Virus record (IMG/VR): IMGVR_UViG_3300045988_011450
Coordinates: 1 to 6,335 of that record
Direction: 5' to 3' (one strand)
DNA length: 6,335 nucleotides
DNA from: a virus
A model generated the notes under the pieces. The model saw only the letters and a list, made by a program, of their open reading frames with translations, ran no database searches and was not told where the DNA came from. The translations under genes were made by a program, and so were the position numbers. Positions 1 to 6,335 of this stretch are shown here, one piece after another (position 1 is the first letter of the stretch; each line of letters opens with the position of its first letter).

Positions 1-55
1 TCGGAGCTGAATTTATGGCAGGTATTCGCCAAGGTGGTATTAATGGAGCTCCTGG
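1..55. repeat. Terminal direct repeat, copy 1 (circular-genome overlap)
   Basis: The 55 nt tcggagctgaatttatggcaggtattcgccaaggtggtattaatggagctcctgg are identical at 1-55 and 6281-6335. The capsid reading frame is continuous across the junction. Confidence 0.97.
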
Positions 56-1019
56 TAATGGTCAAACCGCTACTGCTTACCCAAGCGGCAATTTAGATGG
101 CGGTTCTCCTTATTTTTATGCTAAAGGTACATCGAAATCTCCTGTTGGTTCGGTTGCTCTTCCTGCCTATATTTCAGGTTCTGATTTGACTTCCTCTCTT
201 TCGGGTACGTTAGAAGCTCAGTTCTCTGTTCTTCAACTTCGTGCAGCCGAAGCTATGCAGAAATGGAAAGAGATTGCTTTGGCTAATGGTCAAAACTATG
301 CTGCTCAGGTCAAGGCACATTTTGGTGTAAGTGTTAATCCTTTGCAGGCACATCGCTCTACTCGTATTTGCGGTTTTGATGGTTCTATTGATATTTCTGC
401 TGTCGAGAACACAAATCTTACTTCTGATGAGGCAATTATCCGTGGTAAAGGTTTAGGCGGTCAACGTGTGAATAATCCTGAAACGTTTACTTGTGATGAA
501 CATGGTATTTTAATGTGTATTTATCATGCTACACCGCTTTTGGATTATGTCCCTTCGGGTCCTGATTTGCAACTTCTTTCTACTGTTGACGGCGCTTCTT
601 GGCCTGTTCCTGAGTTTGATTCTTTAGGCTTGGAGTCTTTGCCTTTTTTACCTTTGATTAATGTTAAGGAGATTAGCCCTGTTCTTCCGAATAAGTTTAT
701 CGGTTATGTTCCTCGTTATATCAGTTGGAAAACTTCTACTGATGTCGTCCGAGGTGCATTTACGGATACCTTACGTTCATGGGTTGCACCTGTCAATAAA
801 GAGTATTTGATGAAGTTTACTCAGATTCCTGATAATGTTTCTCCTTCTGAAGGTGGTTATAACTTTTCGTATAGTTGGTTTAAAATCAATCCTTCGGTTG
901 TTAATCCTATTTTTGGTGTTGCTGCTGGTGATGACTGGAATTCTGACCAATTACTTTGTAATTGCCAGTTTGATGTGAAAGTTGCTCGTAATCTTTCGTA
1001 TGACGGTATGCCTTATTGA
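1..1019 (+). CDS. VP1: Major capsid protein VP1, C-terminal part (wraps from 6280; codons start at positions divisible by 3; stop TGA 1017-1019)
   Basis: Track ORF 15..1019 is in the same frame as the 5413 ORF once 6281 is equated with 1. 868 nt (5413-6280) plus 1019 nt gives 1887 nt, i.e. 628 codons plus stop. Codons are strongly T-ending. Confidence 0.95.
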   Translation, partial: GAEFMAGIRQGGINGAPGNGQTATAYPSGNLDGGSPYFYAKGTSKSPVGSVALPAYISGSDLTSSLSGTLEAQFSVLQLRAAEAMQKWKEIALANGQNYAAQVKAHFGVSVNPLQAHRSTRICGFDGSIDISAVENTNLTSDEAIIRGKGLGGQRVNNPETFTCDEHGILMCIYHATPLLDYVPSGPDLQLLSTVDGASWPVPEFDSLGLESLPFLPLINVKEISPVLPNKFIGYVPRYISWKTSTDVVRGAFTDTLRSWVAPVNKEYLMKFTQIPDNVSPSEGGYNFSYSWFKINPSVVNPIFGVAAGDDWNSDQLLCNCQFDVKVARNLSYDGMPY

Positions 1020-1041
1020 TTTATTTAAAAATTTTACTATT

Positions 1042-1524
1042 ATGTCTAAATTTGGTTTTTCTCGTTATAGTTTGAATGTTGATAATCAGCTTCATTCTAA
1101 TACAGTTGTTTGTTGTTCTGATGCGTCTGTTGCGTTGGCTGGTGTATTACCTGAGATTTCGCCTGTTGAAGATTTTCTCTTTAATCATAATGTAGATGGT
1201 ACAGTTACTTTTGTAAGTGATTATGGTGTTCTTGCTGGACAGGCTGCAATTGATCAGATGAATCCGACTCAGTTGCGTCGTTATCTGAATGGTTTACGTC
1301 CTTCTTCATCTCCTTATACTAATCATTATGATGATGATTTCCTTTTGGAATATTGTAAGGATAGAAATATCCAGTCTTACACTGAAATGCAAGCTTGGCT
1401 TGATCATTTGATTTCAGAGGGTCAATCTATTGAGAGTGATGTTGCTGCTTATCAGGCTGCTAAGTTGGCAGAGCAACAAAAGTCTGCTGATCCTGCAAAT
1501 AATGCCCAATCTTCTACGGAATGA
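1042..1524 (+). CDS. Hypothetical protein, 160 aa (position suggests a scaffolding or other morphogenesis role; not recognisable by motif)
   Basis: This is the track ORF 982..1524. I prefer the ATG at 1042 (MSKFGFSRYS...) because it lies 22 nt after the capsid stop instead of inside the capsid gene. Codon bias is strongly T-ending. Its stop overlaps the VP2 start (ATGA at 1521-1524). Confidence 0.7.
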   Translation: MSKFGFSRYSLNVDNQLHSNTVVCCSDASVALAGVLPEISPVEDFLFNHNVDGTVTFVSDYGVLAGQAAIDQMNPTQLRRYLNGLRPSSSPYTNHYDDDFLLEYCKDRNIQSYTEMQAWLDHLISEGQSIESDVAAYQAAKLAEQQKSADPANNAQSSTE

Positions 1525-2618
1525 TAGGTGCGGCTATCGGTGCCGCTGGTTCACTTGCCAGCGGTGTCGTTAATGCTATTGGCAATAATCGTCAAGGTTC
1601 TAAGAATAGAAAACATCAACTTGAAATGCAGCGGATTCAGAACGAATGGGCAAGTGCTGAGTCTCAGAAATCACGTGATTTTGCTAAGTCAATGTTTGAT
1701 GCTTCTAATGAATGGAATTCGGCTAAAAATCAGCGTGCACGTTTAGAGGAAGCTGGTTTAAATCCTTATTTGATGATGAATGGTGGTTCAGCTGGTATGG
1801 CTCAGTCTACATCTGCAACTGCTACTGGTGGTTCTTCTGGTTCTGGTGGTTCACCTTATCAATACACACCTACCAATATGGTTGGTGATGTTGCTTCTTT
1901 TGCTGGTGCTATGAAGTCTCTTTCTGACGCTCGTAAGTCTGGCACAGAAGCTGATTTGTTGGGTAAGTATGGTGATTCTGATTATTCTTCTCGTATTGCT
2001 AACACAGAGGCTGATACTTATTTTAAACAGCGTCAATCTGATGTTGCTACTGCACAAAAAGCTAATTTGCTTTTGTCTGCCGAAGCTCAGCAAGTTATGA
2101 ATATGTATCTTCCGCAGGAAAAACAGATAGCTCTTTCTACACTTGGTGCTCAGTACTGGAATATGATTAGAGATGGCTCTATCAAAGAAGAACAAGCAAA
2201 AAATCTTCTTGCTACTCGTTTGGAGATTGAAGCCCGTACAGCTGGCCAACATATTTCTAATAAGGTTGCTCGTTCAACTGCTGATAGTATTATTGACGCT
2301 ACTAATACTGCTAAGATGAATGAAGCTGCTTATAATAGAGGTTATTCTCAATTTTCTAATGATGTTGGTTATCGTACAGGCAAAATGGACCGTTGGTCTC
2401 AGGATCCTGTCAAAGCTCGTTGGGATAGAGGTATAAATAATGCTGGTAAGTTTATCGACGGACTTTCTAATATTGTCGGTTCTGTTACTAAGTTTGGTTT
2501 TTTAAGAAATGCTAACAAGTCGTTAAAAGAGTCTAAGCGTCAATTTGACCGCGGTACGGTTGATATTTTTGATGATAATCGCGGTTATTCTTGGACTCGT
2601 CAACATCGTGGTCGTTAG
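1521..2618 (+). CDS. VP2: Minor capsid / DNA pilot protein VP2 (H-like)
   Basis: 365 aa. The N-terminus is a small-residue hydrophobic segment (MIGAAIGAAGSLASGVVNAIG). It is followed by NSAKNQRARLEEAGLNPYLMM, with AGLNP at 1752-1766, the motif shared by microvirus VP2 pilot proteins. A Gly/Ser-rich linker and a long predicted helical region follow. The position after VP1 fits. Confidence 0.87.
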   Translation: MIGAAIGAAGSLASGVVNAIGNNRQGSKNRKHQLEMQRIQNEWASAESQKSRDFAKSMFDASNEWNSAKNQRARLEEAGLNPYLMMNGGSAGMAQSTSATATGGSSGSGGSPYQYTPTNMVGDVASFAGAMKSLSDARKSGTEADLLGKYGDSDYSSRIANTEADTYFKQRQSDVATAQKANLLLSAEAQQVMNMYLPQEKQIALSTLGAQYWNMIRDGSIKEEQAKNLLATRLEIEARTAGQHISNKVARSTADSIIDATNTAKMNEAAYNRGYSQFSNDVGYRTGKMDRWSQDPVKARWDRGINNAGKFIDGLSNIVGSVTKFGFLRNANKSLKESKRQFDRGTVDIFDDNRGYSWTRQHRGR

Positions 2619-2642
2619 TTGTCTTTTGTTTTTACTCCTTTT

Positions 2643-2674
2643 AAGGGATTGGCTTTAATTAGTCAGTCCCTTTT
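2643..2674 (+). terminator. Hairpin plus short T run 25 nt after the VP2 stop (candidate intrinsic terminator or ssDNA hairpin)
   Basis: AAGGGATTGGCT (2643-2654) pairs with AGTCAGTCCCTT (2661-2672) over 12 positions, two of them G-T/U wobbles. The loop is TTAATT, and TT follows at 2673-2674. The T tract is short, so terminator function is uncertain. Confidence 0.35.
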
Positions 2675-2865
2675 CCGTATGGCCCTTCTGCTTCACTACA
2701 TTTCTTGTCCCTTCTATCCGTCCAGCCAGCTGGGGGGGCCCTCTGGGGGGAGCAAGGCTCCCTAAATCTCTATGACGAGACGGGAGTCGAGCATGAAAAA
2801 AACGTCGGCCGTCCACGGGCCGCAGCCGTGGCCCTCGGAGAGTCTTAGCGAAGCGTTGTTCTGCA
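2675..2865 (+). other. GC-rich structured noncoding island (candidate ssDNA origin structure or ncRNA; family unknown)
   Basis: Hand count gives 79 G+C in the 120 nt at 2721-2840 (66%), against visibly AT/T-rich coding flanks. It contains G7 (2732-2738) and G6 (2745-2750). Hairpins are GGGAGC-aag-GCTCCC (2748-2762) and CCACGG-gccgcag-CCGTGG (2813-2831). ORFs here lack the genome's T-ending codon bias. Confidence 0.55.
2848..2854 (+). other. GCGAAGC mini-hairpin heptamer, copy 1
   Basis: Exact GCGAAGC read at 2848-2854 in the packaged-sense strand. Confidence 0.5.
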
Positions 2866-2884
2866 TAGTTTATAAATTTTACTG

Positions 2885-2909
2885 GTACGAAGTTCTCCGA
2901 CTTTCGTGC
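2885..2909 (+). other. Stem-loop (9 bp with one bulge, loop TCTCCG)
   Basis: GTACGAAGT (2885-2893) pairs with ACTTTCGTGC (2900-2909). T2902 is bulged and there is one G-T wobble. Confidence 0.45.
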
Positions 2910-2914
2910 GAAGC
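2908..2914 (+). other. GCGAAGC mini-hairpin heptamer, copy 2
   Basis: Exact GCGAAGC at 2908-2914, 60 nt after copy 1. It overlaps the base of the 2885-2909 stem. Confidence 0.5.
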
Positions 2915-2915
2915 A

Positions 2916-2941
2916 AATCGGATTAATTGTTATTTCCGATT
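2916..2941 (+). promoter_or_regulatory. Perfect 7-bp stem with 12-nt AT-rich loop, 87 nt upstream of the Rep gene (candidate origin hairpin)
   Basis: AATCGGA (2916-2922) pairs perfectly with TCCGATT (2935-2941). The loop is TTAATTGTTATT. Confidence 0.4.
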
Positions 2942-3015
2942 CAAACACCCTTGTTCACGATTGGCGAAAGTCACATGACTATATTAAAGGTATTGCGTAA
3001 TAAAAAAAAAGTTTT

Positions 3016-3023
3016 TATGTTTG
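3016..3023 (+). promoter_or_regulatory. Bacteroides-type -7 promoter motif TAnnTTTG (TATGTTTG) upstream of VP4
   Basis: TATGTTTG lies 4 nt before the VP4 ATG. A partial -33-like ATTG sits at 2992-2995, giving a 20-nt spacer. An A9 tract (3002-3010) lies between them. The motif is so close to the ATG that the transcript would be nearly leaderless, so this call is tentative. Confidence 0.25.
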
Positions 3024-3027
3024 CAGC

Positions 3028-4647
3028 ATGCTAAACGAAAGAAGTAAAACATATGGTTCCTGTGCTCACCCTCGTATAATTAAGAATAAATATACAGGTG
3101 ACCCTGTTTATGTTCCTTGCGGTTCTTGTGAGTTTTGTATTCACAACCGTTCTGTTAAATCGGAGCTTAAATGCAACGTTCAACTTGCTTCTTCTAAGTA
3201 TTGTGAATTTGTTACGCTTACTTATTCTACTGAGTATTTGCCGGTAGGTAAATTTTATCAAGGTTCTCGTGGTGAGGTTCGTTTTCGGTCGTTATCTCGT
3301 GATTTTGTTTATTCATATAAGACTGTTCAAGGTTATAACCGTAATATATCGTTTAATGATGAAGTTTTTGATTTTGATACTCAGTTGTCTTGGGAGGCTG
3401 CACAATTATTGCAGAAAAAGACGCATTTACATTATACTGCTTTTCCTGATGGTCGGCGTGTTTATAATAGACCTTATATGGAAAATTTTATCGGTTATCT
3501 TAACTACCGTGATATACAGCTTTTTCTGAAACGTTTAAATCAAAATATAAGGAGTATTACAAATGAAAAGATTTACTACTACGTTACTGGCGAGTATGGA
3601 CCAACGACTTTCCGCCCGCATTTCCATCTCTTATTTTTCTTCGACTCGGAAAAGCTCCGACAAAGTTTTAGACAGTTTGTTTCTAAGAGCTGGCGATTTG
3701 GTGATTCAGATACGCAACATGTCTGGTCGTCCGCTTCATGCTACGTTGCGGGATATGTCAATAGTATTGCGTGCCTTCCCGACTTTTTTAAGAATAGTAG
3801 GCATATTAAGCCGTTCGGGCGCTTTTCTGTCCATTTTGCGCAATCCGCTTTTGATGAAGTGTTTAAACCGCAAGAAGATGAAGAAATATTCTCTTTATTC
3901 TATGATGGTCGAGTCCTTGACCTTAATGGAAAGCCTACGCTTGTTAAACCTACAAGGTCGCATATCAATAGATTATACCCCCGACTTAATAAGTCTAAGC
4001 ATGCGTCTGTGGTTGATGATATACGAGTTGCAACAACTGTATCAAAACTCCCACAAGTCCTTGCAAAATTCGGCTTTATTGATGAGGTAAGTTCTTTTGA
4101 GTTTTCAAAGCGTGTTTATTATTTGATTCGTCGGTATTTGGAAGTTGATCATTGCTTGGATTCTGCGCCTGAGGAACTTCGTATAATTTATAATGCTTGT
4201 CGCCTTTCGTTGTATATCAACTTTTCGGATGAAAGCGGTTGCTCTGCTATTTATCGTTTGTTGCTTCAGTATCGTAACTTAGTCGATAATTGGATTACTG
4301 CTCCTGCTGGTTCTGTTGCCTTTACTGGTCAATTACGTAAAGCTGTGAGGTCTATTCATTCTTTCTATGATTATTGTTCTCGACGCTCTTTGCATGATCA
4401 GCTTGTTAAGGTTGAAAAGTGGTCTAATGATTCTTATGTACGTGATAATTTGTCAATATATTATTTTTACCCGTTGACTGATGTTGATATAATGAAGAAA
4501 TCTTTTTCAGAGATAGTGTTTGGTAGCTCTGTTCTTCGAGCCAGCTATGCAGATTATGCAGCGGATAATCGTGAACGTATCAAACATAAAGCTCTGAATG
4601 ATAAGAATTCTTTGTTGATTGCAGAAGTTGACAAAAAACCTGTTTAA
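3028..4647 (+). CDS. VP4: Replication initiation protein VP4 (HUH rolling-circle endonuclease, phiX174 gpA-like)
   Basis: 539 aa. RCR motif I is FVTLTY (3208-3225). The HUH motif is HFH within RPHFHLLFFF (3619-3627). The two-tyrosine motif YVAGY within CYVAGYVNS (3742-3756) resembles my recollection of phiX174 gpA YVAKYVNK. The N-terminus has a Cys/His cluster, CAH...PCGSCEFCIH. Confidence 0.94.
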   Translation: MLNERSKTYGSCAHPRIIKNKYTGDPVYVPCGSCEFCIHNRSVKSELKCNVQLASSKYCEFVTLTYSTEYLPVGKFYQGSRGEVRFRSLSRDFVYSYKTVQGYNRNISFNDEVFDFDTQLSWEAAQLLQKKTHLHYTAFPDGRRVYNRPYMENFIGYLNYRDIQLFLKRLNQNIRSITNEKIYYYVTGEYGPTTFRPHFHLLFFFDSEKLRQSFRQFVSKSWRFGDSDTQHVWSSASCYVAGYVNSIACLPDFFKNSRHIKPFGRFSVHFAQSAFDEVFKPQEDEEIFSLFYDGRVLDLNGKPTLVKPTRSHINRLYPRLNKSKHASVVDDIRVATTVSKLPQVLAKFGFIDEVSSFEFSKRVYYLIRRYLEVDHCLDSAPEELRIIYNACRLSLYINFSDESGCSAIYRLLLQYRNLVDNWITAPAGSVAFTGQLRKAVRSIHSFYDYCSRRSLHDQLVKVEKWSNDSYVRDNLSIYYFYPLTDVDIMKKSFSEIVFGSSVLRASYADYAADNRERIKHKALNDKNSLLIAEVDKKPV

Positions 4648-4654
4648 TATAAGT

Positions 4655-4798
4655 ATGAAAGATTATTATTATGCTATTCTTTATTTTGGTGAGGATTCTG
4701 TGAAGGTTGTTATGACCCTTGATCAGATTGATTCTGTTCTTAAAACAGGGCATACTGTTGAAATTCTTGAGCGTGTTCATCTTTTAATTACTGATTGA
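4655..4798 (+). CDS. Small hypothetical protein, 47 aa (not in the ORF track)
   Basis: My translation is MKDYYYAILYFGEDSVKVVMTLDQIDSVLKTGHTVEILERVHLLITD. 33 of 47 codons end in T, matching the genome's coding bias. It fills the gap exactly, starting 7 nt after the VP4 stop and stopping 1 nt before the next ATG. I recognise no homology. Confidence 0.5.
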   Translation: MKDYYYAILYFGEDSVKVVMTLDQIDSVLKTGHTVEILERVHLLITD

Positions 4799-4799
4799 T

Positions 4800-5204
4800 A
4801 TGTATAAGCCTAAGTATTTTTCTTTGCAAGAATTGATTGATACGTCTGTTACAACTCTTGCTAATAATATTCCAAATTGGGATAGTTTGGAGAACCTTCT
4901 TGTTTTGTGCGAAAAGATTCTTGATCCTTTGCGTGATGCATTTTGCAAACCTTTGTTCGTAAATTCTGGCTATCGTTCTAATTTTGTGAATGAAGCTGTT
5001 GGAGGTGTTTCTACTTCTCAACATAAATTAGGTTGTGCTGCTGATTTATCTGTTCGCTCTGATTGTTCGTTGTCTGAGTTATTTGAGCTTGTGCAGGATT
5101 TACATTTACCTTTTGATCAGCTTATTTATTATAAGAAAAGACGTTTTATTCATGTGTCTTGGTCTCCTACTCCACGGTCTCAGGTGATTGTCCGTAATGA
5201 ATAA
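4800..5204 (+). CDS. Zinc D,D- or L,D-peptidase, Peptidase_M15_3 / M15A-like (putative peptidoglycan hydrolase, endolysin candidate)
   Basis: 134 aa. It has the SGYRS...N..VGG..SQHKLGCAAD pattern, with H-x6-D formed by H75 (5022-5024) and D82 (5043-5045). A distal FIHV histidine, H118, sits at 5151-5153. This is the H-x6-D...H zinc triad layout of VanY/M15 phage peptidases. No signal peptide or TM segment is visible. Confidence 0.85.
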   Translation: MYKPKYFSLQELIDTSVTTLANNIPNWDSLENLLVLCEKILDPLRDAFCKPLFVNSGYRSNFVNEAVGGVSTSQHKLGCAADLSVRSDCSLSELFELVQDLHLPFDQLIYYKKRRFIHVSWSPTPRSQVIVRNE

Positions 5205-5416
5205 TGCTTGATATTCCTTTATCTTTCCCGTCTATTCATAATGATTTGGTAGACGGAATACCTGAAAATTATGTTTCCTATTATAAAAAGTATTTATATG
5301 AAATTGAATTTTTCCGTCTTAAAAAAAGTGATTCTTCTGATTCACGACATTGTGACGTTCCTCTTGTCAAGGAAGAAAAACAATTAGTTATTAATTTTAA
5401 ATTTGATGAAAAATGA
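5204..5416 (+). CDS. Hypothetical protein, 70 aa
   Basis: Its start overlaps the peptidase stop (TAATG) and its stop overlaps the VP1 start (ATGA). 38 of 70 codons end in T. The protein is charged (K/E/D rich) with no TM segment, and I recognise no motif. Confidence 0.5.
   Translation: MLDIPLSFPSIHNDLVDGIPENYVSYYKKYLYEIEFFRLKKSDSSDSRHCDVPLVKEEKQLVINFKFDEK
5398..5405 (+). promoter_or_regulatory. TAnnTTTG motif (TAAATTTG) 7 nt upstream of the VP1 start
   Basis: Read directly. It lies inside the 70-aa ORF. I saw no good -33 TTTG at the expected spacing, so this may be chance in a T-rich genome. Confidence 0.2.
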
Positions 5417-6335
5417 GTAGTTTATTTTCGTATGGAGATATTAAAAATTCTCCCCGTCGTTCTGGTTTCGATTTGTCGAACAAATGTGCGTTTACCGCTA
5501 AGGTAGGTGAGTTGCTTCCTACTTATTGGAAGTTCTGTATGCCTGGTGATAAGTTTAAGATTTCTCAGGAATGGTTTACCCGTACACAGCCAGTAGATAC
5601 TTCTGCTTTTACTCGTATTCGTGAATATTACGAGTGGTTCTTTGTTCCTCTTCATTTGCTTTATCGTAACAGTAACGAGGTGATCATGTCCTTGGAGAAA
5701 CAACCTAACTATGCCGCTTCTTCGTCTTCTTCCATTTCTTTTACAAGAAATTTACCTTTTCTTTCTTTGTCTGACATAAATTCAGCTATTGTTAACGTTG
5801 GTAAATCTACAAAACAAAAGAATTTCTTTGGTTTTAAGCGTGCAGACGGTTTTAAGAAGCTTTCTTCATACCTTGGCTATGGTGAAACTGATCCCTCTGT
5901 TATCGAGGTTGATTCTCGTGTTTCTGCTTTCCCGTTCTACGCTTATCAGAAGATTTATGCTGACTATTACAGAAATTCTCAATGGGAGAAAAATCAGCCT
6001 TGGACGTACAACTGTGACTTCTGGAACGGTGAGTCTGCATCTCCTGTTTCTACCTCGACTGACTTATTCAACACTCACCCTAATGACTCGGTTTTTGAGC
6101 TTCGGTATGCGAATTGGAACAAAGATCTTTGGATGGGCGCTTTACCTAATTCTCAGTTTGGTGATGTTGCTGCTGTTACTATTACCTCTGACCTTTCTAA
6201 ATATAAAGCCTCTGTTGCTGGTCGTGCTAATGTTAAAGGCATGATGCCTGTTGTTTATGGTGACGCTGGCGGCAATTCTGTCGGAGCTGAATTTATGGCA
6301 GGTATTCGCCAAGGTGGTATTAATGGAGCTCCTGG
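5413..6335 (+). CDS. VP1: Major capsid protein VP1 (F-like), N-terminal part; continues at position 1 after removing the 55-nt duplicate
   Basis: The ATG at 5413 overlaps the upstream stop (ATGA). My own translation is open to the window end: MSSLFSYGDIKNSPRRSGFDLSNKCAFTAKVGELLPTYWKFCMPGDKF...FFVPLHLLY...YAYQKIYADYYRN. The RxGFDLS / FTAKxGELLP / PGD / FFVP pattern is the conserved Microviridae capsid N-terminus. This ORF is missing from the ORF track because it has no stop inside the window. Confidence 0.95.
   Translation, partial: MSSLFSYGDIKNSPRRSGFDLSNKCAFTAKVGELLPTYWKFCMPGDKFKISQEWFTRTQPVDTSAFTRIREYYEWFFVPLHLLYRNSNEVIMSLEKQPNYAASSSSSISFTRNLPFLSLSDINSAIVNVGKSTKQKNFFGFKRADGFKKLSSYLGYGETDPSVIEVDSRVSAFPFYAYQKIYADYYRNSQWEKNQPWTYNCDFWNGESASPVSTSTDLFNTHPNDSVFELRYANWNKDLWMGALPNSQFGDVAAVTITSDLSKYKASVAGRANVKGMMPVVYGDAGGNSVGAEFMAGIRQGGINGAP
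6281..6335. repeat. Terminal direct repeat, copy 2 (circular-genome overlap)
   Basis: Exact copy of 1-55. An end overlap of this kind is typical of a circular contig reported linearly. A length of 55 nt would fit an assembler k-mer overlap (inference). Confidence 0.97.

Follow-up and report, generated by a model that had tools for sequence, protein, structure and literature searches.

The 409-nt spacer between the pilot protein gene VP2 and the replication protein (Rep) gene VP4 of the microvirus genome IMGVR_UViG_3300045988_011450 (positions 1 to 6,335 of the IMG/VR record; this whole stretch of 6,335 nt is called the window below) is a non-coding and strongly conserved element at a conserved position, with base pairing that is specific to the + strand and carries compensatory changes, and with an enrichment of mini-hairpin motifs on the same strand. 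Our preferred reading, to which we give a probability of roughly 55%, is that this spacer is a DNA-level origin signal formed by folded single-stranded DNA (ssDNA) of the packaged (+) strand. An initial annotation made from the letters of the window had singled out a GC-rich, hairpin-dense island at 2675-2865 and had offered, among other options, that the virion ssDNA folds here into a signal for priming the complementary strand. This interpretation stands in part: priming is the best-supported reading, short of proof, and is favored by the constraint on the + strand only, by the richness in DNA mini-hairpins and by the position between a terminator-like hairpin and a putative promoter. The GC-rich island is just the 5' two-thirds of a larger feature, since all of 2619-3027 is under constraint, and it is part of a ~350-nt non-coding stretch folding into conserved hairpins on the packaged strand.

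The comparison set consists of 25 relatives with data, which are independent assemblies from several collections (alignment A3, n = 25). The nearest public genome is that of Bacteroides phage phiHBP1 (PV598014, L001; 82.6% identity over the full length), the first Bacteroidota microvirus in culture, whose genome was checked by polymerase chain reaction (PCR) and Sanger sequencing (PMC13064476). The element is carried by 25/25 relatives, including the Sanger-verified phiHBP1, and the relatives form two clades with ~80% and ~69% genome-wide identity to this genome. Spacer identity is 76-90% in genomes that are 69-83% identical overall, and in clade 2 the spacer aligns well while the flanking coding DNA hardly aligns. 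In a 20-genome alignment, 2733-2832 is the most conserved 100-nt window of the genome (mean pairwise identity 0.91 vs 0.73 overall), and the window 2901-3000 reaches 0.855. For 16 sequences, 31 nt of the island served as an exact search pattern; every relative found via the VP4 protein alone also has the element, so retrieval with DNA patterns does not explain its ubiquity. The segment 2846-2880, which holds a GCGAAGC mini-hairpin, the hexamer TAGCGA and the second copy of TTCTGC, is variable by indels, and a shorter unrelated AT-rich stretch takes its place in about half of the relatives. Its replacement across both clades suggests recombinational shuffling of spacer modules.

The features of the spacer are the following:

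2619-3027, 409 nt: VP2-VP4 spacer, a non-coding gap
2643-2676, + strand: terminator-like hairpin H0, 12 bp, AAGGGATTGGCT paired with AGTCAGTCCCTT, including two G·T pairs, then TTTT
2675-2865, + strand: GC-rich island, a clade-specific hairpin-dense module that fills most of the 409-nt gap
2748-2762, + strand: hairpin H2, GGGAGC-AAG-GCTCCC, 6 bp, paired in 25/25
2763-2774, + strand: single-stranded linker TAAATCTCTATG, invariant except for one A>G in two sequences
2776-2791, + strand: hairpin H3 with a GNNA loop (GGGA, 2782-2785), 2-3 Watson-Crick pairs and then tandem G·A/A·G mismatches
2793-2806, + strand: ATGAAAAAAACGTC, with an A7 run, between H3 and H4a, invariant in 25/25
2806-2822, + strand: hairpin H4a, CGGCC-GTCCACG-GGCCG (2806-2810 with 2818-2822), 5 bp, paired in 25/25
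2813-2831, + strand: H4b, CCACG(G)/(C)CGTGG, the second hairpin of the initial annotation
2834-2842, + strand: mini-hairpin H5, CTC-GGA-GAG
2848-2854, + strand: mini-hairpin GCGAAGC (GCGGAGC at the same site in L046)
2884-2980, + strand: domain B, a three-way junction of 97 nt, the most widely conserved part of the spacer
2887-2893, + strand: domain B mini-hairpin A-C-GAA-G-T
2899-2906 with 2965-2972, + strand: closing helix B1 of domain B, GACTTTCG with CGAAAGTC, followed by ACA
2907-2915, + strand: domain B mini-hairpin TGC-GAA-GCA
2916-2922 with 2935-2941, + strand: H6, AATCGGA with TCCGATT
2942-2964, + strand: unpaired junction of 23 nt, containing CTTGTTC (2950-2956)
2992-3023, + strand: promoter-like site, ATTG (-33, one mismatch to TTTG), a 20-nt spacer and TATGTTTG (-7 box, 3016-3023)

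Six helices were set by hand and their pairs counted on alignment A3, with 500 shuffles and slid positions as controls. Covariation in homologous VP2-VP4 spacers, which the initial annotation had named as a check, is present in these hand-set helices: standard pairing was found in 850/850 cells for the 34 pairs counted, and 7 of the 34 show compensatory changes. No shuffle (0/500) matches the observed pairing, and the slid controls reach 28-50%. The supported helices are H2, H4a, B1, the TGC-GAA-GCA mini-hairpin and H6. Moreover, the one-sided changes (8/8) are G·U or U·G on the + strand and would be A·C on the - strand; as they are tolerated on the + sense alone, the + strand is the folding strand. 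H0, H3 and H5 are out of register in the alignment and were checked sequence by sequence.

The individual hairpins keep their shape through changes of sequence. H0, which lies a short way past the VP2 stop codon (the hairpin itself spans 2643-2672), folds with 9-13 bp in 25/25 relatives despite very different stems (in clade 2, for example, GGCTGGCTC/GAGTCGGCC), and a hairpin with a T-run also opens the gap of two distant relatives (L065 and L063). A terminator scan did not list H0, the T-run of which is 4 T followed by CC. H2 is present where the initial annotation had placed it; it has a compensatory version, GGGAGA/TCTCCC, in L053, and its loop varies in length (AAG, TCGCAG, AGGCAC and AAGCAT). 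The linker that follows was in part the search pattern for L006-L009 and L043-L058, where its invariance is by construction, and part of 2793-2806 was the search pattern for L043-L058 only. The shape of H3 is kept in three sequence versions (ACGAGACGGGAGTCGAG, TCGAGCGGGAGCGAAG and TGAGAGCGGGAGCGAA, read by hand as the columns are not in register), of which the second and third are literal GCGNNAGC mini-hairpins (GCGGGAGC and GCGGTAGC). H5 is found in compensated versions, namely GCC-GGA-GGC (16 sequences; holds CCGGAGG), CCC-GGAA-GGG (6 sequences; holds CCGGAAGG) and CTC-GGGA-GAG (2 sequences).

The hairpin that the initial annotation had drawn at 2813-2831 (CCACGG/CCGTGG, our H4b) exists at that position, but the covariation is found in the overlapping helix H4a instead, with a compensatory G-C to C-G change in L001 and L057 and seven one-sided changes, all G·U-compatible on the + strand. 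The 5/5 counted pairs of H4b never vary and thus speak neither for nor against it; H4b would either compete with H4a or form an H-type pseudoknot with it (one-base overlap; loops of 2 and 4 nt). An alternative pairing of CTCCC (2758-2762) with GGGAG (2782-2786), also suggested in the initial annotation, was dropped, being broken without compensation in five sequences with GGTAG. Similarly, A and G variants at 2710 break a helix between the G-runs and the pyrimidine tracts at 2681-2689 and 2708-2716. Read in the minus sense, 2796-2822 (H4a and the A7 run) gives CGGCC-CGTGGAC-GGCCG-ACGTTTTTTT, a clade-invariant sequence of textbook intrinsic-terminator form that was also picked up by the terminator scan. 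A promoter-motif scan found no antisense promoter near it, and the site was not seen in the two distant gaps read (L063 and L065); it may mark where a primer RNA synthesized on the + strand ends, or it may be a coincidence.

It is also evident that the spacer is rich in DNA mini-hairpins. Many of its stems have just 2-3 bp and are capped by GNA or GNNA loops, with GCGN(1-2)AGC or CCGN(1-2)AGG as the literal motif, and the density of this motif in the clade is 6.2 per kb in the spacer vs 0.19 per kb elsewhere (33-fold), the - strand of the spacer having 0; each genome of the clade has 2-5 mini-hairpins. GCGAAGC, GCGAAAGC, GCGGGAGC and GCGGTAGC lie at conserved positions in the clade, and the site at 2908 reads GCGAAGC, GCGAAAGC, CGCGAAGCG, GCGAATGC or CCCGAAGGG depending on the genome, the hairpin being kept while the letters change. 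The equivalent region of 21 distant genomes holds 66 motifs on the + strand, where composition would predict 5.2, vs 10 on the - strand. According to a 2026 review (PMC13037366), GCGAAGC, of which 2848-2854 is an exact match, is an "extraordinarily stable" DNA mini-hairpin (melting temperature 76.5 °C vs 39 °C for the RNA version), the single-stranded DNA-binding protein SSB binds such mini-hairpins poorly, and they occur at the primer site of the complementary-strand origins of G4, St-1 and alpha3 as well as in RSF1010 ssiA (CCGAAGG) and in the phage N4 ssDNA promoter (GCGGAGC). The mini-hairpins immediately 5' of domain B and within it are spaced exactly 19 nt apart in several distant genomes (L065 3520/3539, L066 3587/3606, L073 5209/5228 and L071 3787/3806/3825), and the same spacing is 21 nt in this genome (2888 vs 2909), which hints at a fixed geometry.

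Domain B extends far beyond the clade. On alignment A3, its 18/18 pairs are paired in all 25 sequences, with compensatory changes in 5. A covariance model of domain B (R1), built solely from phiHBP1-like sequences, gives one significant match per genome, always on the + strand, in 11/11 distant GenBank microviruses (L063-L073; VP4 27-34% identical), with E from 7e-8 to 5e-3. These matches lie in unannotated DNA after the pilot gene except in L070 (Dulem virus 257), where the match (3654-3747) lies under two "hypothetical protein" coding sequences (CDSs; 3581-3784 and 3768-4046). R1 also matches ten IMG/VR contigs (L077, L097, L109, L116, L130, L136, L137, L139, L141 and L143); a loose DNA pattern for domain B gave mostly chance matches in large IMG/VR contigs, and only those confirmed by the covariance model were used. 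In the wider alignment, which is model-fitted and in this way favors structure, 97.1% of cells are paired, 16/18 pairs show a compensatory change, 0/500 shuffles equal the observed pairing and the slid controls reach 23-38%. Distant copies of domain B keep CTTGTYC in the unpaired junction and ACA after the closing helix. A hairpin ACGAAGT/ACTTTCGT that would rival B1 was rejected: the frequent A2890>T is uncompensated there and is neutral as the N of a GNA loop. Domain B is absent from Rfam. Two of the matching contigs, L141 (7,762 nt) and L116 (7,950 nt), are ~1.5 kb over typical microviruses and have a good domain-B match; they may be larger genomes, concatemers from assembly or pieces of a prophage.

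The surroundings of domain B are conserved as well. Non-coding DNA follows the pilot gene in 11/11 of the distant microviruses, their largest gap being 174-1,112 nt, and this gap contains the genome G+C maximum in 7/11 and 2-8 mini-hairpin motifs in 10/11. In 23/23 loci, the 300 nt preceding domain B have elevated G+C, and TAnnTTTG, which together with TTTG is the Bacteroides promoter consensus, occurs 17-118 nt downstream in 21/23 loci, usually at 45-66 nt (background 0.14 per 160 nt). A second covariance model (R2), of the island core, has no match in the distant relatives, and the island sequence is clade-specific. As read from these sequences, the general plan appears to be a fast-evolving GC-rich mini-hairpin module, then a conserved three-way junction, then an early promoter. 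That domain B always lies on the gene strand and upstream of TAnnTTTG points to Bacteroidota hosts for these uncultured phages.

The window is a complete circular microvirus genome. Its terminal overlap of 55 nt (1-55 = 6281-6335, read from the sequence) is the assembly signature of a circle, which makes the true genome length 6,280 nt. The + strand is the coding direction of all genes, which are arranged around the spacer as follows:

5414 through the junction to 1019, + strand: major capsid protein, Phage_F domain
1042-1524, + strand: open reading frame (ORF)
1521-2618, + strand: pilot protein VP2 (stop codon 2616-2618)
3028-4647, + strand: Rep protein VP4, REP_ORF2-G2P domain
4800-5204, + strand: small ORFs and M15 peptidase

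The order on the + strand is thus VP2 stop, H0 with its T-run, island, domain B, ATTG-20 nt-TATGTTTG and VP4 ATG. With a hairpin and T-run upstream and a -7 box downstream, the element lies between transcription units, directly upstream of the rep operon. The site at 2992-3023 probably works as a promoter, judging from its match to the consensus, and it ends 4 nt before the VP4 ATG (3028), so the VP4 mRNA may be leaderless. An insertion in clade 2 again creates a TATCTTTG box 3 nt before the ATG.

The composition of the island sets it apart from the rest of the genome. Its G+C content is 59.7% vs 38.8% for the genome, and the top 120-nt window, with 66.7%, begins at 2718, the best one elsewhere in the genome reaching 51.7%; as the standard deviation (SD) of 120-nt windows is 5.9 points, the island is ~4.7 SD out. 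The hand counts of the initial annotation were reproduced exactly for 2721-2840 (79/120, 65.8%) and 2701-2850 (93/150, 62%), as were its coding samples (47% G+C at 1-60, 25% at 3301-3360), and its short words lie where it had put them (CCCTTCT at 2683 and 2709, the G7 run at 2732, the G6 run at 2745, GGCCCT at 2681, 2737 and 2830, CCGTCCA at 2718 and 2809). TTCTGC does occur at 2686 and 2859, but its meaning as a flanking direct repeat is lost, because the genome has six copies and the second one is deleted in half of the relatives. The G-runs 2732-2738 and 2745-2750 range from G5 to G8 among the relatives, a spread that may reflect either true slippage or sequencing errors in homopolymers; with 6-7 nt between them, two runs of G6-7 might also fold into a two-tier G-quadruplex.

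Several points weigh against an origin made of folded DNA. The folding energies of the single sequence, computed with both parameter sets as the initial annotation had recommended, are just ~2 SD better than shuffles: z is -2.15 (RNA parameters) and -1.97 (DNA parameters) on the + strand, and -0.86 and -1.89, respectively, on the - strand, the two strands being nearly equal with DNA parameters. With energies this marginal, the evidence for structure rests on the comparative data. No supported fold was obtained for 2698-2747, the 5' third of the island with its pyrimidine tracts and G-runs, and some of the island invariance is by construction, since exact patterns taken from the island were used to retrieve sequences. 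As a terminator, H0 is weak, and it has no clean T-run in clade 2, so that read-through transcripts with the island likely exist; because the mRNA has the same sense, structure specific to the + strand is equally expected for RNA. Furthermore, no sequence similarity of the spacer to any characterized origin was found (local alignment with the f1 intergenic region (IG): score 22 vs 19.4 +/- 2.2 for shuffles, P ~0.14), and we know of no primer, nick site or host factor for these phages. The action of the spacer at the DNA level, its identity as an origin and the division of roles among its modules are all inferred.

Some of these points would suit an RNA-level role, in which the spacer forms either a processed non-coding RNA or a structured 3' untranslated region on the transcript of the capsid and pilot genes; it might then stabilize the transcript, control read-through into VP4 or act in trans (e.g. 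as an anti-defense RNA). The folded strand has the sense of all genes, H0 looks leaky, the RNA-parameter z-score is better on the + than on the - strand, the GNRA-like GGGA loop of H3 with its tandem G·A pairs is a common RNA motif, and 2806-2831 may be an H-type pseudoknot. We nevertheless regard such a role as unlikely. No Rfam family (Rfam 15) was found in the spacer at E<=10 on either strand (two matches at this threshold in the whole window, at 4443-4505 and 5246-5300, are outside the spacer and far below the gathering score), and ARAGORN found no tRNA or tmRNA in the spacer. There is no conserved Bacteroidota promoter upstream, the nearest TAnnTTTG (2564-2571) being unconserved and inside VP2, whereas a conserved promoter-like box lies downstream of the element. 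The 2-3-bp stems with GNA triloops, which show compensatory changes, are strong as DNA and weak as RNA, given the melting temperatures above, and the loop variant GGTA is GNNA, not GNRA. The structured RNA or ribozyme suggested in the initial annotation has therefore gained no positive evidence. Read by hand, a hammerhead in CUAUGACGA...GAGC fails at A6 or A14 in every variant, and no P1 partner was found for a hepatitis delta virus-like fold at ~2806-2860. The element may be additionally transcribed into a structured RNA, for example an anti-defense decoy or a self-processing RNA.

A small protein is a very improbable alternative, whether as a 136-aa product in phiHBP1, as the 68-aa product of ORF 2772-2978 or as a peptide from the ATG at 2793 with a frameshift at the A7 run. 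It draws on a GenBank CDS of phiHBP1 (XTK89949.1, "hypothetical protein", 136 aa, at 2326-2736 = window 2570-2978) that is annotated on the structured spacer, on the string WYEVLRLSCEANRINC...CSRLAKVT, which recurs in one frame in clade 1, and on the ATG with A7 and then a possible pseudoknot, which resembles a slippery site. Three-frame translation, which covered 26 sequences, argues otherwise. Between this genome and the phiHBP1 CDS, indels of +1, +2, -1 and +2 nt split the frame into three, and the frame of XTK89949.1 is kept in no relative, so it is probably a spurious gene call. The frame of the recurrent string shifts relative to the ATG and has TGA in all clade-2 genomes, whereas the ORF from the invariant ATG ends after 10 to 61 codons, with all four bases at the first position of codon 11, TAG included. 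Just 14/68 codons (21%) of ORF 2772-2978 end in T vs 52-70% in real genes, in agreement with the initial annotation, which had called the ORFs crossing the island non-coding. There is also no Pfam match, the A7 run is only 3-4 nt from the helix, and nucleotides are conserved even at third positions, in a pattern that tracks base pairing. A protein-coding frame was rejected on these grounds.

The atypical composition would also be explained by a captured host fragment or an assembly chimera without function, as the initial annotation had considered, and this we reject as having next to no probability. Twenty-five independent assemblies contain the island, as does the PCR- and Sanger-verified isolate phiHBP1 (PMC13064476), the island is conserved above coding sequence with compensatory changes, and the distant relatives have an equivalent GC-rich module. 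No extended match was found in bacterial genomes or plasmids: the exact hairpin pattern gave only 21-31-nt chance matches in high-GC bacteria among 185,579 species genomes, a scan that is informative only as "no exact copy in Bacteroidota" since the pattern is too GC-rich and too short, and the plasmid collection had no match to the spacer. Another match, in L013, a viral contig of 37 kb, falls within coding sequence and was discarded. Among 50,697 phage records, phiHBP1 was the only one that the spacer matched in a distant BLASTN search.

A different cis-signal at the DNA level, such as a Rep (+) origin with binding enhancer, a packaging or capsid-contact signal, or a folded recombination site used in integration (cf. 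the CTX-phi attP(+) hairpin), appears rather improbable as a separate explanation and overlaps with the origin signal that we favor. The GC-rich 5' end of the f1 IG includes the packaging hairpin, the REP_ORF2-G2P domain of VP4 is common to the Ff gene II protein, and folding of the + strand also suits Rep termination on the displaced strand. Moreover, the element lies directly upstream of rep, the usual place of the double-strand origin (dso) in rolling-circle plasmids (PMC5703833). However, there are no iterons or tandem repeats; a dif/XerCD-like resemblance near 2996-3026, examined by hand, has the wrong central spacing and is unconserved; an exact-pattern search of species-representative genomes found no prophage copy; and phiHBP1 did not lysogenize (PMC13064476). 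The island is clade-specific and Rep is conserved, so recognition by Rep fits domain B better than the island. The present data fit a (-)-origin and a Rep (+)-origin alike and cannot separate the two.

Among known systems, the closest analogue in logic is probably the Ff IG, whose layout the spacer seems to mirror together with that of rolling-circle plasmids, where a single-strand origin (sso) lies next to the dso. The Ff IG has the order terminator/packaging hairpin A, (-) origin hairpins B-C, (+) origin hairpins D-E and gene II. Both are non-coding regions of ~400-500 nt between the last late gene and rep in a small ssDNA phage (f1 5501-6005, upstream of gene II); both open with a hairpin that ends, or here may end, the upstream transcript and act, in f1, or would act, here, in the + strand only; and both form a GC-rich hairpin cluster in an AT-rich genome, f1 (J02448, L188) having a peak of 65.8% G+C at 5489-5608 in a ~41% genome vs 66.7% here. 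Both Rep proteins have the REP_ORF2-G2P domain, and the position agrees, with a non-coding block directly upstream of rep after a terminator-like hairpin. The two differ in virus family, host RNA polymerase and promoter type, and the map is known for Ff only. The Ff (-) origin, which is primed by RNA polymerase, has two hairpins that imitate a host promoter (-35/-10) in folded ssDNA. A promoter mimic of this kind was not found: an E. coli-like -35/-10 mimic is neither expected nor seen here, there is no TAnnTTTG on either strand in 2572-3015, a sigma-70-type scan is empty in the spacer, and a Bacteroidota -33/-7 mimic could not be built from the supported stems. Words common to the f1 IG (CTTGTTC, GGCTCCCT and CTAAATC) were treated as chance, as there is no significant alignment.

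The G4-type origin depends on DnaG primase, which makes a defined primer from a specific trinucleotide on SSB-coated ssDNA, and has three hairpins in the F-G spacer. G4, St-1 and alpha3 belong to the same virus family as this phage and likewise have an intergenic hairpin cluster in the virion strand; here the cluster, in the + strand of a non-coding spacer, comprises H0, H2, H4a, H5, B1, the mini-hairpins and H6. The primer site of those origins carries a mini-hairpin, GCGAAAGC or GCGTTAGC (PMC13037366), and related motifs stand at conserved positions here; G4-type GCGNNAGC/GCGNAGC motifs, which may or may not lie at a priming site, are among those 33-fold enriched on the + strand. This element differs in being much longer, in lying after the pilot gene and upstream of rep, and in having several mini-hairpins per genome, and homology to the G4, St-1 and alpha3 oriC is not seen, as the BLASTN search of phage records found phiHBP1 alone. 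The primosome assembly site of phiX174 is a hairpin of ~55 nt that PriA recognizes, with assembly dependent on PriB, PriC and DnaT, and it has no sequence consensus that a scan could use. As far as is known, PriB, PriC and DnaT occur only in proteobacteria, which makes a phiX174-type PriA primosome pathway unlikely in Bacteroides.

The sso elements are orientation-specific, ~160 nt, highly folded and host-range-limiting, and the plasmid types (ssoA/U/T/W) and sso1 of ICEBs1 resemble this element as folded non-coding regions of ~160-300 nt that often lie near dso and rep (PMC5703833, PMC4595007). The strand specificity of the structure would be consistent with the orientation-specific activity of sso, and a clade-specific island beside a conserved core fits the host-range-limiting pattern; the hosts differ, being Firmicutes for sso and Bacteroidota here. 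TAGCGA (2846-2851) resembles the CS-6 hexamer of ssoA, TAGCG(T/A), which in ssoA occupies a terminal loop. It lies in the segment that is absent from about half of the relatives, no recombination site B (RSB) was found, and nothing in the plasmid collection matched. In reekeekee- and roodoodoo-microviruses, the DNA between Cap and Rep has conserved hairpins, with random stop codons and compensatory stem changes, that have been proposed to serve in (-) strand initiation (PMC9865509); those are one or two simple hairpins (13-64 nt) in unrelated phage groups and hosts, whereas this element is multi-domain, ~350 nt long and has a three-way junction common to a much wider clade. Membership in the G4, phiX174, Ff or ssoA family is unsupported at the sequence level, and the element would seem to have only the working principle in common with them.

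If the spacer is an origin signal, it might work as follows. Once the + strand has been injected, and each time a progeny strand is displaced, the GC-rich stems and the d(C-GNA-G)/d(C-GNNA-G) mini-hairpins would keep their fold, and SSB would coat the T-rich remainder of the genome. A defined folded site would thereby stay exposed, where the primase of the host, its RNA polymerase or a PriA-type primosome would prime the complementary strand. Domain B would be the conserved core of the initiation signal or the nicking/termination origin of Rep (VP4). The conserved unpaired 23-nt junction (CTTGTYC) between the domain B helices, 48 nt upstream of VP4, is a candidate nick region, and the island may be a clade-specific 5' module of the cis-element that fills the VP2-VP4 gap. 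A bolder version, which we put forward only tentatively and hold to be doubtful, is a new origin class of the Bacteroidota gut-microvirus radiation, with mini-hairpin clusters as an SSB-resistant pad for a Bacteroidota-specific priming enzyme, domain B as the Rep nick site and the island as a host-range module.

Most likely, the element is of a known kind, an "ssDNA replicon origin region", with an architecture and a host group not previously described. It is a concrete, alignable cis-element, consisting of a 97-nt three-way junction, a GC-rich mini-hairpin module, a terminator-like hairpin and a Bacteroidota-type promoter, and its recognition flags a probably spurious CDS in the reference genome phiHBP1. 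The cultured pair phiHBP1 and B. fragilis H1 (PMC13064476) now makes the element testable. As sso limits the host range of plasmids, an origin here would give a handle on host-range determinants. It would also supply a marker motif to recognize and orient such genomes in metagenomes as well as parts for ssDNA vectors in Bacteroides, and it would show that the association of DNA mini-hairpins with ssDNA initiation, so far based on a few cases from E. coli, extends to a large family in nature.

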